Shown: in pieces, positions 3,285 through 28,180 of the stretch
Layout of the letters: each line of letters starts with the position of its first letter
Numbering within the stretch: the first letter of the stretch is position 1
Virus record (IMG/VR): IMGVR_UViG_3300024502_000032
Coordinates: 1-32,434 of that record
Direction: 5' to 3' (one strand)
Length of the DNA stretch: 32,434 nucleotides
From: a virus
Taxonomy: Duplodnaviria; Caudoviricetes
Program-made: the position numbers and the translations under genes
Notes under the pieces: model-generated
What the model saw: only the letters and a program-made list of their open reading frames with translations
What the model was told of the DNA's origin: nothing
Database searches by the model: none

Positions 3285-5174
3285 TTAATAATTTACTACC
3301 CTACCTCTAATATCTTTATTAGGATATTTTACTTCAAAAATGCTTTGGTCTATCGATGTATATATTATATTTCTTTTAGTTGCAGAATCTATATCATATA
3401 CATTTCCTGAATATCCTAAACTGACATCATATAAATTAATAATGCTTAAATTTGCAACAGATATTACTCCTTCAACTTGTGAAATTTCTTTCATTACACT
3501 ATTTTTGAATATAGGTTTGCCTATACCCATCTTTTCAATATCAAAATAATCTTTTAGACTTTTCATACATCTGAGTAATACTTCATTACTATTGTAAACT
3601 TCATCAACAATTATTTCAAAATCAACTCCTATATTAATTATGAAAGCATCACGTATACTAACGGAGTCTGTCATAATTCTATACTCTTTTAAATAATTCA
3701 ATAAATTAAATTTAACAGCATCATTTAGTACAGTTAAATTTTTGTTTTCGTCATATCCTAAACAATATAAGTTAATTCCAAAATAATTAACATTCTGAAA
3801 ATCTGTTGAATTATCTAAATACTGGTCATCTAATTCTACACATACTTTTGCTATAGCACCATACTTTACAGGCATAGAATAAACTCTAACAATATAATCA
3901 TCTTTTGTAACAGCTCTATTTTGTGATGCAAAGTTAGCTAATGCTTCTCTTCTAACGTCTTCCACACCTCTCCTAGATAGTCCACCACTAGCAGGTTTTG
4001 GATTATTGACAGCAACACTATCTAAAACAGTACTATAAATTTGGGAATCTAAATTAGATTGTGGCGTTGTTATGTTAGATTGTATTATACTAGATATGCT
4101 ATTAGCTCCAACATTATCTTCAACACCACCACCAACTGTATATCTAACAGTTAGTGTAGTGTTTGCTGGTGCTTTTCCATATGTTTTTGTATACAAAAAA
4201 TTCTTAGGGTCTATACTTAAATCAACTGCTCTTTCAAAATAGTCTAATCCAAAACCAACATTAAATGGATTTGGTATTATTTCTTCATCATATTCTGAAC
4301 TCACTCCTGAGCCAAATTGTATTTCAAACCTATTGGTTTCCCTCAATCTTGTTACAAATCTCCTTTCAGTTTGTTTGAACTGTATAAGATATGGAGCAGT
4401 AGACCTAAATTTTGCGAGATGTGAATCGTTATATGGTAAATTTGGAACTGATATTGGTATTAAATCTTGTGCTAAATATGGAGTTTCATACCATCTATTA
4501 TTATCTGAGTCATATATATCTACTATTTCTAATATATCTAATTGAGGTAAGACAATCTTATCATAAGGTTTAGGAGAGCTGAAATCATAATTTGCAGTTA
4601 AAATTTCTCCTGATACTGCTTTTACATTCTTTCTTAACAAGAAATATTCTACTTCACCTGTATTATCTAATGAGTAAACTGTGATTTCTGTAGGGTCAAA
4701 TGATGAACTGTATGAAAAATCTACACTATCTATAGTTCTGAAAGTTTTATTTGTTTCGGAACTTACTATCATATTTGAATCTATCTGCAAACAATATCTA
4801 AAGTCAGGTACAATAGATGTACCATTATTTACAGATGGAACTAACTGAAATACATCTAAATCTACAGATGCTGGTGTTCTAAACTTAGGTTTATACCCTA
4901 ATGAATGAGCTATGTTAAATAAGTTCTGATTTTCTTCTACAGTTAATAATAAAGATTCTCTTAGTTGTATATCAGTATAAAATGATAATATATCTCCTGT
5001 TGCTGCCGCTAATTCCATGAACATCATACCTGGCGATGATTCATTGAAATCATTATATGTATCAGGAAAATAGTTTTTAGTATAATCTATAAGTTGTTTC
5101 CTAATCTCAGAAAAATCTTTATTTAGATATTTTATATCTTTCCGTATATTATTATTAATTAATCTCGAACTCAT
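3285..5174 (-). CDS. Baseplate wedge subunit (T4 gp6 / Baseplate_J-like)
   Basis: KDFSEIRKQLIDY..FPDTYNDFNESSPGMMFMELAA..GDILSFYTD, IQFGSG, Y.VGGG..NVGAN, ASGG, QNRAVTKDDY motifs. Confidence 0.85.
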   Translation of the reverse strand: MSSRLINNNIRKDIKYLNKDFSEIRKQLIDYTKNYFPDTYNDFNESSPGMMFMELAAATGDILSFYTDIQLRESLLLTVEENQNLFNIAHSLGYKPKFRTPASVDLDVFQLVPSVNNGTSIVPDFRYCLQIDSNMIVSSETNKTFRTIDSVDFSYSSSFDPTEITVYSLDNTGEVEYFLLRKNVKAVSGEILTANYDFSSPKPYDKIVLPQLDILEIVDIYDSDNNRWYETPYLAQDLIPISVPNLPYNDSHLAKFRSTAPYLIQFKQTERRFVTRLRETNRFEIQFGSGVSSEYDEEIIPNPFNVGFGLDYFERAVDLSIDPKNFLYTKTYGKAPANTTLTVRYTVGGGVEDNVGANSISSIIQSNITTPQSNLDSQIYSTVLDSVAVNNPKPASGGLSRRGVEDVRREALANFASQNRAVTKDDYIVRVYSMPVKYGAIAKVCVELDDQYLDNSTDFQNVNYFGINLYCLGYDENKNLTVLNDAVKFNLLNYLKEYRIMTDSVSIRDAFIINIGVDFEIIVDEVYNSNEVLLRCMKSLKDYFDIEKMGIGKPIFKNSVMKEISQVEGVISVANLSIINLYDVSLGYSGNVYDIDSATKRNIIYTSIDQSIFEVKYPNKDIRGRVVNY

Positions 5175-25395: not shown

Positions 25396-25403
25396 TATAT
25401 TTG
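25396..25403 (+). promoter_or_regulatory. Bacteroidota-type -7 promoter element driving the CRISPR locus
   Basis: TATATTTG matches TAnnTTTG; followed by CTGAAA as at 28537; -33 element is weak. Confidence 0.55.
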
Positions 25404-25408
25404 CTGAA

Positions 25409-25421: not shown

Positions 25422-25432
25422 ACTAAAGATAA

Positions 25433-25508
25433 GTGCGGTTATGGAGGATAATCGCACGTTAAGTTAAACGGTGTATGTTGTAATGACATTAGCCGAAACC
25501 CTTGAAGG
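25433..25508 (+). ncRNA. 76-nt structured scaffold/leader RNA, copy 1 (tracr/omega-RNA-like)
   Basis: Identical to 27465-27540; hairpins GTGCGGTTAT/ATAATCGCAC, CGTT/AACG, CGGT..ATGTTG/TGACAT..GCCG; abuts first repeat. Confidence 0.65.
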
Positions 25509-25909
25509 GTCAGAGTACGTCTTTGGATTGTGGAGGGTATCTCACTGTTTGAAATTACCTTCAAGGGCTTTAATTTCCATTTCCGTCAGAGTACGTCTTT
25601 GGGTTGGGGAGGGTATCTCACATATCCATTGGTTGATTCAAATGGAAAACGTACAGTCAGAGTACGTCTTTGGGTTGGGGAGGGTATCTCACCTCCATAC
25701 ATTTAAAACCAAGGGGAACGTAAACAATTGTCAGAGTACGTCTTTGGGTTGGGGAGGGTATCTCACTAAAGCTGAAAATAAAGAAGCAGCAATAATAACA
25801 CGTCAGAGTACGTCTTTGGGTTGGGGAGGGTATCTCACAGAGATTAAGACTGAGTTGTGGTGATTTACTTATGTCATAGTACATCTTTGGGTTTGGGAAT
25901 GTATCTCAC
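25509..25909 (+). CRISPR. CRISPR array 1: 6 repeats of 37 bp (GTCAGAGTACGTCTTTGGGTTGGGGAGGGTATCTCAC), 5 spacers of 39, 34, 37, 35 and 34 nt
   Basis: Repeats start at 25509 (2 mismatches), 25585, 25656, 25730, 25802 and 25873 (5 mismatches, terminal). Confidence 0.95.
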
Positions 25910-25949: not shown

Positions 25950-27458
25950 ATGGAAAATGTTTTAAAAGCATATAGGTTTGAATTACAACCTTCAAAAGAA
26001 CAATGTATTGAATTCGATAAACAGATAGCATCTTGTAGACATACTTGGAATGCTATGTTAGCACTAGATACTAACAAACACAGAAATTACTATATTAGTA
26101 ATCCTGATAAACTACAGGATTATATAAATAACCTAACTAAGGTTGAAGAGTTGAAGAATAGCTACGCTAAGTATCTAGTAGACAATCCGAATCCCACTTT
26201 TGAACAAAAATTGGATTTTTTTATTCCTGTTGTTGAAACCAAATTAAATTGTGGTGAATTCATAACATATGTAACAGAATATTTACAAGAGCGTATAAAA
26301 TCTAATACTGAAAGTCTTTCTAAAATAGAATCTATTGATGATAATTCTAAAATTTTGGCGAAGAAGCTAACAACTAAAATAGAATCAGACAATAAAAACT
26401 TATTAGATATTACTACAGTTAATAAAAAATATTCAAAATTAACATTGGGAAAATTTTTAACAATACTCAGGTCATATGAAAATTATGAATGGATGTCAAC
26501 TTGTCCAAGACTTTCCCAAACTGCTGTTGTTATAAATTACTACGAATCTTGGAATAAGTATTTTAAATATTTAACCAAACTAAAAAAAGGTGATATAAAC
26601 CATAGGGTTGGTAAACCTAAATTTAGAAAATATAAAGATGTTTCATCATTTATAACATCTTATGGTGACAATATTACATTAGAAAATTTAGATGATAATA
26701 AATCATTACTACATATTACAGGTTGTGACCCTATACGATTAATTAGGCATAGAGAACCTAAAGGTATTCTAAGGTCAGGGACTATAGTCAGGGAGTATGC
26801 AGGTAAGTATTATGTAAGTTTACTATATAGTATTGATGATTACCAACCTATTTCTAAAAAAACTGAAAAAGAAATAGCTATAGATTTAGGTGTTAAAACT
26901 TTAGTTGTTCAAAACGATGGACATACCTATGAAAATAAATCTAAACAAGTATCAGCAGATAAGAAATTAGCTAAGATTCAAAGAGAACTAGCTTTGAAAA
27001 CAAAAGGTAGTAAATCAAGAAGGAAAGTGATAGCTAAACTTCGTAAAGCTCATCGTAAAATAAAGAATATTAGAACTGACTACTTACACAAAGTTTCTAG
27101 GGAACTTGTTAATAATTATGATGTAATTTATACAGAAAACTTGAAGAATAAGGAAATGATAGAAAAAGGTACAAAGAGTCTATCTAAATCTCTACAAGAA
27201 AGTTCATTTGGTAAATTTGTCACTATGTTAGAATATAAAAGTAGAGAAGATGATAAGAGATTGATTAAGGTTGATACTTATTTTCCCTCATCTCAACTAT
27301 GTTCAAATTGTGGACATAAAAATACAGAATTAACTTTAAATGATAGAGAATGGGATTGTCCAGTATGCAATGAACATCACGATAGAGATTTGAATGCTGC
27401 TAAAAATATATTCAAAGAAGGTGTAAGAATAAAGAACTCAAAAGAGAGTTCTAAATAA
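25950..27458 (+). CDS. tnpB: CRISPR-associated TnpB/Cas12f-like RuvC nuclease, about 502 aa
   Basis: KAYRFELQPSKEQ/RHTWN N-terminus, GKPKFRK, RuvC-I AIDLG (D312), RuvC-II TENL (E396), CSNC..CPVC zinc ribbon, RuvC-III DRDLNAAKNI (D480); ATG at 25950 lies outside the array. Confidence 0.9.
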   Translation: MENVLKAYRFELQPSKEQCIEFDKQIASCRHTWNAMLALDTNKHRNYYISNPDKLQDYINNLTKVEELKNSYAKYLVDNPNPTFEQKLDFFIPVVETKLNCGEFITYVTEYLQERIKSNTESLSKIESIDDNSKILAKKLTTKIESDNKNLLDITTVNKKYSKLTLGKFLTILRSYENYEWMSTCPRLSQTAVVINYYESWNKYFKYLTKLKKGDINHRVGKPKFRKYKDVSSFITSYGDNITLENLDDNKSLLHITGCDPIRLIRHREPKGILRSGTIVREYAGKYYVSLLYSIDDYQPISKKTEKEIAIDLGVKTLVVQNDGHTYENKSKQVSADKKLAKIQRELALKTKGSKSRRKVIAKLRKAHRKIKNIRTDYLHKVSRELVNNYDVIYTENLKNKEMIEKGTKSLSKSLQESSFGKFVTMLEYKSREDDKRLIKVDTYFPSSQLCSNCGHKNTELTLNDREWDCPVCNEHHDRDLNAAKNIFKEGVRIKNSKESSK

Positions 27459-27464
27459 AAATCT

Positions 27465-27540
27465 GTGCGGTTATGGAGGATAATCGCACGTTAAGTTAAA
27501 CGGTGTATGTTGTAATGACATTAGCCGAAACCCTTGAAGG
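27465..27540 (+). ncRNA. 76-nt structured scaffold/leader RNA, copy 2
   Basis: Exact copy of 25433-25508, starts 6 nt after the nuclease stop codon, abuts array 2. Confidence 0.65.
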
Positions 27541-27951
27541 GTCAGAGTACGTCTTTGGGTTGGGGAGGGTATCTCACTGCACAAAAGTAATGATTTTTCT
27601 ACATCGACACCTCAAGTCAGAGTATGTCTTTGGGTTGGGGAGGGTATCTCACGAGGAGGCTAAAACACTACAGAATTATTATCTGAAGTGTCAGAGTACG
27701 TCTTTGGGTTGGGGAGGGTATCTCACTTTGATTAAAGCGGTCTATAGCAGGTCTGACTTCCAAATGGTCAGAGTACGTCTTTGGGTTGGGGAGGGTATCT
27801 CACGCCAACATCGGTAGTAAAAAAGTGACAAAGTCGGTAGTGTCAGAGTACGTCTTTGGGTTGGGGAGGGTATATCACTAATTATGGCTAATTTGCCATA
27901 ATTAAAACTGAGGTATTAGAGTATATCTTTAGATTTTAGAGTATTATTTAA
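27541..27951 (+). CRISPR. CRISPR array 2: 5 intact 37-bp repeats plus a decayed terminal repeat; spacers 38, 37, 40, 38 and about 36 nt
   Basis: Repeats start at 27541, 27616 (1 mismatch), 27690, 27767, 27842 (1 mismatch); relic at about 27915-27951. Confidence 0.93.
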
Positions 27952-28032: not shown

Positions 28033-28104
28033 AGCGAGATAGTGTAATGGTTAACACATAGGATTCATGCTCCTATACTATCAGTTCGACTCTGATTCTC
28101 GCCA
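28033..28104 (+). tRNA. tRNA with CAT anticodon (Met, or Ile2 if modified); CCA not encoded
   Basis: Cloverleaf: AGCGAGA/TCTCGCC, GTGT/ACAC, TAGGA-TTCATGC-TCCTA, ATCAG-TTCGACT-CTGAT. Confidence 0.85.
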
Positions 28105-28180
28105 CTATTTTACACATTATAAACAAATCACTTTACATAATAGTATCAAATCACTTTACATATTATTAACTAAGGTATAT

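Follow-up and report, generated by a model that had tools for sequence, protein, structure and literature searches.

The freshwater phage sequence analysed here (the window, 32,434 nt in all, from a virus record that also encodes baseplate, endolysin and Hsp20 genes) carries a tnpB-family gene between two cassettes, each consisting of a scaffold followed by a CRISPR array, with all elements on the plus strand. Both arrays are headed by the same 113-nt unit (25433-25545 and 27465-27577), made of a 76-nt scaffold and a 37-nt repeat. The initial annotation had described a 113-bp direct repeat with an identical 76-nt part, the second copy of which begins 6 nt after the stop codon, and comparison of the two units bore this out: 111/113 positions are identical and, as the exact run spans 94 nt (25433-25526), the 76-nt scaffold is 100% identical between copies, the only differences being repeat positions 19 and 23 of copy 1. 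The tnpB stop codon ends at 27458 and scaffold copy 2 begins at 27465.

In cassette 1, scaffold copy 1 (25433..25508) comprises a first hairpin with the pseudoknot loop GGAGG (25443-25447), a second hairpin and the anti-repeat ACCCTT (25498-25503), and is followed by array 1 (25509..25909), with 6 repeats of 37 nt, the first carrying 2 changes and the last 5, and 5 spacers of 34-39 nt. The gene (25950..27458, 502 aa, product P0001) comes next. Cassette 2 starts with scaffold copy 2 (27465..27540; loop at 27475-27479, anti-repeat at 27530-27535), at the ancestral omega-RNA position 3' of the gene, and continues with array 2 (27541..27878), which has 5 repeats and 4 spacers of 37-40 nt, giving nine spacers of 34-40 nt in the two arrays together. 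Behind it lies a trailer (27879..27945) composed of a palindromic old spacer, also present in the related locus L006, and a decayed repeat-like stretch. A tRNA-Met gene (28033-28105) is found 155 nt behind array 2, as it is also behind array 2 in locus L008. The last tnpB codons, before scaffold 2, contain a hairpin (27433-27452) that scores as a minus-strand terminator and may mark a processing site for cassette 2.

The completeness of a 41-kb record with the same sequence is estimated at ~25%, and neither cas1 nor a Y1 tnpA gene (PF01797) was found in it; type III genes were likewise absent from the phage record examined. The locus is absent from the syntenic site of the sister phage G306 (86% in a marker protein). 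Neither the tnpA gene nor the varying insertion sites of a mobile IS200/IS605 element were observed: the flanks are the same in L005-L009, five metagenome loci with an intact gene (95-96% TnpB protein identity) that represent three further strain types.

A motif scan detected a Bacteroidota-type -7 promoter element of putative function (TATATTTG, 25396..25403, plus strand) ahead of scaffold 1, which is also present in L005, L007 and L009; with the consensus and register given in the available text of PMC6847099, transcription is predicted to start near 25408, ~25 nt upstream of scaffold 1. A sigma-70 promoter scan stayed at background level. Parts of the stretch were present in 20 runs of 16 studies, nearly all freshwater. 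In cassette 1, RNA-library contigs from three studies run from about scaffold position 15 through repeat 1, spacer 1 and repeat 2 to spacer 2. Unlike DNA contigs, they do not reach into the upstream flank, which hints weakly at a transcript that starts near the scaffold. Such contigs are uninformative on RNA ends, strand or level, and their depth (~120-550 for the cassette head and 2-27 for the gene) is one figure per contig and not a measure of expression. Spacer 6 had no RNA contig among the matches listed, though DNA contigs cover it, and because spacers 3-4 are poorly covered in DNA runs too, coverage holes were not used as evidence.

The nuclease and its omega-RNA-like scaffold

P0001 scores above cut-off for Pfam PF12323, PF01385 and PF07282 (HTH, OrfB and TNB zinc finger) and for NF040570 (243 bits; cut-off 100), and reaches 270 bits with NF038281, below its cut-off of 425. 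The RuvC residues D312, E396 and D480 are intact and a CCCC zinc finger is present; domains and residues together place the protein in the IS200/IS605 TnpB family. An alignment-based model has the TnpB fold (pLDDT 84 overall), with an all-helical REC insertion of ~115 residues (about 41-160, codons at 26070..26429; pLDDT 42-80) that, by alignment and model, is missing from the nearest TnpBs. A single-sequence structure prediction was discarded (pLDDT 40). Among solved structures, ISDra2 TnpB was the best natural match both by sequence (157 bits, versus 99 for Cas12n and 90 for LaTranC) and by fold. Relatives outside its own 49-member cluster share ~32-48% identity over part of the length, and in a quick-method protein tree of 61 rows P0001 forms a long branch without a reliable sister, outside the clade used for the RNA model described below.

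The best PADLOC profiles for P0001 were Cas12u4 (190 bits) and Cas12f (188 bits), and Cas12n (V-U4) and Cas12f proteins share with it a similar size and a tracr-like RNA at the gene 3' end. Nevertheless, the solved Cas12n lies far below TnpB by sequence and fold, and P0001 lacks the unstructured C-terminal tail encoding the tracrRNA that the sources, in their available parts, give as a Cas12n feature: in the model it ends 22 residues past D480 in a confident helix, and the scaffold begins after the stop codon.

The scaffold had been annotated as relatively GC-rich and folding into hairpins, in agreement with its GC content (43%, versus 28% for the window) and with the predicted fold of the 113-mer (-39.8 kcal/mol, z -4.94; 0/200 shuffles equally stable). 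Two alternative pairings of its 3' end had also been proposed, a local ACCCT/AGGGT hairpin and a 9-bp register with the repeat. Both exist as sequence, but the local hairpin has a probability of at most 0.01 in the 113-mer fold, where pairing of ACCCTT with the GAGGGT of the repeat dominates (0.94-0.99), so the suggested switch was not sustained. The 9-bp register also had to be shortened: its outer bases serve a pseudoknot in homologous TnpB RNAs, and the scaffold-repeat contacts are thus likely a 6-bp stem, which as a separable duplex amounts to -8.9 kcal/mol, plus a pseudoknot of 4-5 bp. Whole-array folds paired the anti-repeat with the last intact repeat, which we treated as an artefact of long-range folding.

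To compare the unit with TnpB omega-RNAs by a covariance model, as the initial annotation had proposed, 80 viral loci of nearby TnpBs were retrieved, of which one had any array-like repeat and from which 46 distinct right ends could be delimited. Because the ends were delimited by a tail pattern, the tail letters of the TnpB RNAs are in part a product of this choice, whereas the loop letters were free. Model R1 was built from 20 right ends of array-less phage TnpBs, with the window excluded, and its structure covaries (0/500 shuffles as high). In the window the two units rank 1 and 2 of 17 matches, both full length and ending at the repeat's last base (27462-27577, 23.9 bits, E 0.006; 25430-25545, 21.1 bits, E 0.021), the next match reaching 15.1 bits. 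R1 also finds all 8 complete copies in L005-L009 before anything else in 53 kb. The E-values of the model are modest throughout (0.006-0.045) and rough. Rfam returned no scaffold model between 25000 and 28600, giving a tRNA and one chance match only.

According to the available text of PMC10097598, the first loop of the ISDra2 RNA forms a pseudoknot with the bases at -3 to -5 upstream of the guide, and the window unit uses the same register. The -5 pair is A-U in 45/46 distinct TnpB right ends (the exception, L014, was mis-called by the loop finder) and the -6 pair is pyrimidine-purine in 46/46. In the window these positions are G-C and G-U, with both strands changed at each, which means that the pseudoknot was kept by two compensatory changes. 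Together with the top R1 matches, this argues that the 113-nt unit is an omega-RNA homologue and not a plain leader. Judged by covariance and pairing, scaffold plus repeat 1 is a full-length TnpB omega-RNA homologue that has hairpins 1 and 2, a last stem of 6 bp and the pseudoknot in compensated form, and the 76-nt scaffold represents its 5' two-thirds; one copy lies at the gene 3' end, and the terminal stem and pseudoknot strand directly precede the guide. The annotated idea of an omega-RNA fused to a CRISPR repeat is upheld by this homology, and scaffold, repeat 1 and spacer 1 together have the build of a natural single guide. Overall, the initial interpretation was partly supported; the pseudoknot went unnoticed in it, as did the host-type start of the repeat (its 5' half) and the earlier publication of omega-RNA splitting.

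Two side observations concern these RNAs. A 10-base stretch of spacer 1 (25558-25567) is the reverse complement of the 3' end of the scaffold (25499-25508), covering the anti-repeat, and this complementarity rearranges the predicted fold of unit 1 plus spacer 1; since spacer 1 fully matches its target, the complementarity is probably due to chance. The loci L014-L093 belong to large freshwater phages with many plain IS605 TnpBs and a conserved, covarying right-end RNA, for which there was no Rfam match at the homologous site of the window. G306-like phages may be the source pool.

Repeat format, strain types and spacer turnover

In the first repeat of array 2 (27541..27577, plus strand), positions 1-7 are host-CRISPR-like, positions 25-30 (GAGGGT) close the last stem, positions 32-35 (TCTC) are the pseudoknot strand, and AC stands directly 5' of the guide. 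Positions 25-35 agree with TnpB ends at 7.1/11 positions and with host repeats at 4.1/11, whereas positions 1-7 agree with TnpB ends at 2.0/7; positions 8-24 show background identity to the host repeat family (5.4/17). The search for this family was post hoc, with the first 7 bases prescribed (start GTCAGAG, 37 nt, AC end), and took the form of a repeat-pattern scan covering 26/64 parts of a bacterial genome collection. The scan returned 127 loci, 84 with repeated units and 72 distinct units, mostly from Bacteroidota, and 44 of the 72 distinct repeats have a common start, length and one 3' end. Gene-by-gene annotation of two family loci identified them as type III and revealed Cas1 and PrimPol type B in both and Cas2 in one, and a third has a type III RAMP and Cas1. 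The available text of PMC8211822 describes the Cas1-PrimPol-Cas2 module (CAPP_B) as almost confined to Bacteroidetes type III operons.

The phage repeat matches the family in start, length, end, spacer lengths and polarity, for a pattern defined post hoc: bacterial family spacers peak at 35-37 nt, and 25/27 phage spacers measure 33-40 nt. Bacteroidota CAPP_B loci share with the phage the 37-nt GTCAGAG...AC repeat, spacers of 33-40 nt and decay at the same end, but differ from it in the repeat middle and 3' handle and in their type III genes. The family is rare (2/301 sampled genomes of the phylum, both previously known), and a reverse-end control pattern, with 0/301, is uninformative beside that figure. 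From these comparisons the repeat looks like a chimera, with a TnpB-like 3' end and with a 5' end, length and spacer sizes like those of the Bacteroidota type III family, and the arrays are likely filled by the spacer-capture enzymes of the host.

A host-like repeat start, length and spacer size, in arrays with no evident PAM, would also be expected of viral mini-arrays served by a host type III effector, with the scaffold as a leader relic and the TnpB as a bystander. However, type III crRNAs retain the repeat 3' end as a handle, and it is this part of the phage repeat that is TnpB-like rather than host-like. The compensated pseudoknot and the gene, intact and 95-96% identical in all strains, likewise speak against this explanation, and the matched spacers read in both orientations relative to the target open frames (judged by eye). 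Viral mini-arrays are known, yet the available text of PMC11656645 describes their repeats as identical to the host's, whereas the best identity of the phage repeat to the 72 distinct candidates, which may not include the host's, is 22/37. We regard this explanation as most improbable.

A viral scan for arrays with the same start and end gave 40 loci, and a TnpB relative was present only in the window's own record. The one other repeat type inspected, L244 2107-3180, was rejected, being a phage leucine-rich-repeat gene with a 69-nt period; its repeat unit recurs in about ten other viral contigs and mimics an array in pattern scans.

The four strain types, the window included, have a common layout and different recent spacers. 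They contain 27 distinct spacers with no cross-matches, the oldest trailer spacers excepted, so that in all four a TnpB-derived effector is stably tied to arrays with spacer turnover. Both scaffold copies are present in L005, L006 and L009, and L007 and L008 have one each because the contigs end. Between strains the scaffold differs by a wobble, by changes in loops or linkers and by a single stem mismatch, most of them common to both copies of a strain. The arrays are short and decay at the trailer end, where old spacers are common to strains and one is even common to array 1 and array 2; this sharing implies that new spacers enter beside the scaffold. On sequence grounds, the system is alive. 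A spacer of L007 that seemed to find a target in L006 and L009 was discarded as a common trailer spacer.

The oldest trailer spacers are strongly palindromic (window 27879-27914; L006 2290-2470; L008 2293-2340; L009 4201-4340; L007 2399-2435) and may have been kept as terminator-like or protective hairpins. In L005, array 2 begins with the same 14 bases as spacer 1 of array 1 (4129-4142), and L006, whose array 1 is identical to that of L005, has a different first spacer in array 2; the shared bases reflect either an assembly artefact at the contig end or an exchange between cassettes. Short spacers occur in L008 (2059-2113, 18 nt) and L007 (2187-2214, 28 nt), the former following a first repeat with three changes, perhaps through faulty acquisition or deletion.

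Spacer targets

Non-array contigs from the same samples match spacer 1 (40/40), spacer 2 (1 difference), spacer 7 (4 differences) and spacer 8 (3 differences), and spacer 9 has a non-repeat 5' flank in one run, so that 5/9 spacers were matched; spacers 3-6 had no non-array match among the matches listed. The four visible 5' flanks end in ACC, GAA, GAC and TTT and have no motif in common, and no PAM is therefore evident in this small sample. The target contigs, up to 14.8 kb long, are also present in RNA libraries. In four DNA runs their depth was close to that of the phage contigs (7.3 and 9.5 vs 8.8; 5.3 and 9.4 vs 9.7; 13, 14.6 and 14.8 vs 14.9; 12.2 vs 11.1), contig depth being a crude measure, and they occur also in runs whose array differs.

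Spacer GC is 35.9%, compared with 27.8% for the phage (0/5000 resamplings). Protospacer searches with all 27 spacers in the window, L235, G306 and L005-L009 gave nothing above shuffled controls. Cultured phages and plasmids gave no spacer targets, with tnpB-region or chance-level matches only among the matches listed, and viral contigs contained neither a target for spacer 1 nor a match for a target flank. A spacer 2 match in L234, a bare 20-mer with unlike flanks, was rejected as chance.

The target is read as a linked element of host-like composition, e.g. a satellite or a rival phage. Self-targeting in the unsequenced part of the phage also fits the equal depth, and more generally the main source of the spacers might be the genome of the phage itself or the host chromosome, with binding or regulation instead of defence as the role of the system, or most spacers might be harmless passengers taken up without a PAM. 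Target contigs that track phage depth in four DNA runs and occur where the array differs, together with the perfect match of spacer 1, would be in keeping with such an origin. The spacer GC content, far from that of the phage, the 0/27 spacers with a protospacer in 43 kb of known own sequence or in the 79-kb sister record, and the intact RuvC residues all speak against it, and we find it hardly probable.

Proposed mode of action and relation to known systems

A nuclease gene between two cassettes of omega-RNA scaffold and array, with strain-specific spacers, suggests a transposon-to-CRISPR transition, and the locus probably represents a living stage on the way from a jumping gene to a CRISPR immune system. 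We propose that a phage IS605-type TnpB was immobilised, that its omega-RNA was duplicated and that the 3' 37 nt of this RNA became a CRISPR repeat, giving a mixed mode with a fused guide for the newest spacer; we assign this whole proposal a probability of about 0.5. In this view the original right end would survive as cassette 2, from which cassette 1 would have been copied, the copy having a promoter of its own. Type III spacer acquisition ignores PAMs, and the repeat 5' end, the 37-nt length and the AC end would open the array to PAM-independent spacer addition by a host Cas1-PrimPol-Cas2 module; the host type III Cas1-Cas2 would likely insert each new spacer immediately after a scaffold that is complete and in one piece. 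In each cassette the most recent spacer would then yield a fused single guide as the main product, as in TnpB, and older repeat-spacer units would be used less efficiently, when the scaffold re-pairs with their GAGGGT stem and TCTC strand. Such re-pairing, in trans or by looping out, would be the first step of a tracrRNA/crRNA split. The nuclease is predicted to cut a co-occurring rival, an element of ~36% GC that would travel with the phage as a satellite or a competing phage.

The evidence on the use of older units points both ways. Positions 25-37 are unchanged in 26/27 non-terminal repeats, and repeat changes fall outside rather than inside the core in a proportion of 12 vs 2, a bias that is not significant (binomial p 0.08) and could reflect recent copying. 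These kept cores and the RNA contigs running past spacer 1 favour such use, and the short duplex, the universal fusion and the duplication disfavour it; we consider it plausible, as is action of the scaffold in trans. A stricter arrangement would leave a single armed slot per cassette, in which the scaffold-fused spacer alone is loaded, older spacers are an archive and the scaffold was duplicated to arm a second guide. Every scaffold is indeed fused to a first repeat, with none standing alone; a scaffold acting in trans would be needed only once, but two copies have been retained that mostly change in step; the duplex available in trans is short; duplication is what a one-guide-per-scaffold system would need; and the arrays are short and decay at the trailer. 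On the other hand, stem and pseudoknot strands persist in 26/27 downstream repeats (not significant), RNA-library contigs run on through repeat 2 and spacer 2, and the available accounts of TranC systems report functional split guides of such origin; we consider this stricter arrangement less likely than the mixed mode.

At the opposite extreme, a full TranC-type split would have the scaffold cut off repeat 1 and serving all units equally as an ordinary tracrRNA. Tracr-like and crRNA-like halves are both present and able to pair, every repeat carries the 3' half of the scaffold, all scaffold-repeat contacts fall in the last 13 nt of the repeat, present in each unit, and a scaffold cut two bases into the repeat could close the small ACCCT/AGGGT hairpin. 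Even so, the fused fold dominates (0.94-0.99), the anti-repeat is no longer than the ancestral stem, and neither a stand-alone scaffold nor a separate tracr locus was found among the loci examined, the scaffold always being fused to repeat 1. We judge a complete split very unlikely.

Mixed use of fused and re-paired guides, the preferred reading, falls within a concept that is already published. According to the available text of PMC10097598, the TnpB structure prompted the proposal that an omega-RNA can split into tracrRNA and crRNA, and such splitting has been reported for the TranC transposon-CRISPR intermediates (Jin et al., Cell 2025, as relayed in the available parts of 10.64898/2026.03.27.714800, PMC13565253 and PMC13639567). 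As described there, TranC systems also combine a TnpB-like effector beside a short, cas-less array with a guide derived from the transposon right-end RNA, and include phage members, e.g. CauTranC9, with a 38-bp repeat. P0001 differs from them in being closer to ISDra2 TnpB (157 bits) than to LaTranC (90 bits; PDB 9jfo/9jfq), and the phage scaffold, relative to those descriptions, remains joined to repeat 1 and is present in two copies, with arrays flanking the gene on both sides. A catalogue of TnpB-array branches lists about 40 more, with arrays almost always downstream in the available text of PMC10691335, compared with which the upstream array of the phage is atypical; one supplement file of that paper contained no match to the phage repeat.

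The likeness to ISDra2 TnpB (PDB 8h1j, 8bf8) goes beyond the best natural match: the scaffold measures 113 vs 116 nt, the RNA lies behind the gene, and the first loop forms a pseudoknot with the last bases before the guide, as far as the available text of PMC10097598 describes it. The phage system differs in its ~115-residue REC insertion, the lack of tnpA, the same genomic site in all strains, a CRISPR spacer as the guide, and a host-type repeat start in place of the terminal hairpin loop. Cas12r-CRISPR of Thermus Lalka phages, in the available text of 10.64898/2026.04.20.719267, is likewise a phage TnpB-derived type V system without adaptation genes, for which host adaptation was proposed from repeat likeness and which targets other mobile elements, but it works with a crRNA alone, borrows from type I-E and uses an ARG PAM. 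The phage locus instead keeps a full scaffold, conserved and compensated before each array and, in cassette 1, covered by RNA-library contigs, and has a type III-like format with no evident PAM.

The phage locus is thus an independent TranC-like lineage within a general concept already published with TranC and Cas12r, and is distinguished by its twin cassettes, a pseudoknot preserved by compensatory change, a repeat in type III format and the absence of an evident PAM. In titles and abstract beginnings of the literature, we found neither twin scaffold-array cassettes flanking a TnpB nor a type III-format chimeric repeat. The most specific form of the proposal, tentative and in our view unlikely to hold in every part, would be a 502-aa TnpB with little or no PAM need, fed through the chimeric repeat by a PAM-blind host type III module, with a magazine-like array whose newest spacer sits in an unsplit omega-RNA and a cassette doubled to provide two guides against a travelling, satellite-like element.

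At base resolution, the repeat has the old right end with its pseudoknot at the 3' end and the host type III format at the 5' end, with the scaffold still attached. One locus would thereby allow both fused versus split guides and host-driven acquisition to be tested, and if PAM-blind acquisition has selected for a relaxed PAM, the protein would be a candidate for a compact editor.
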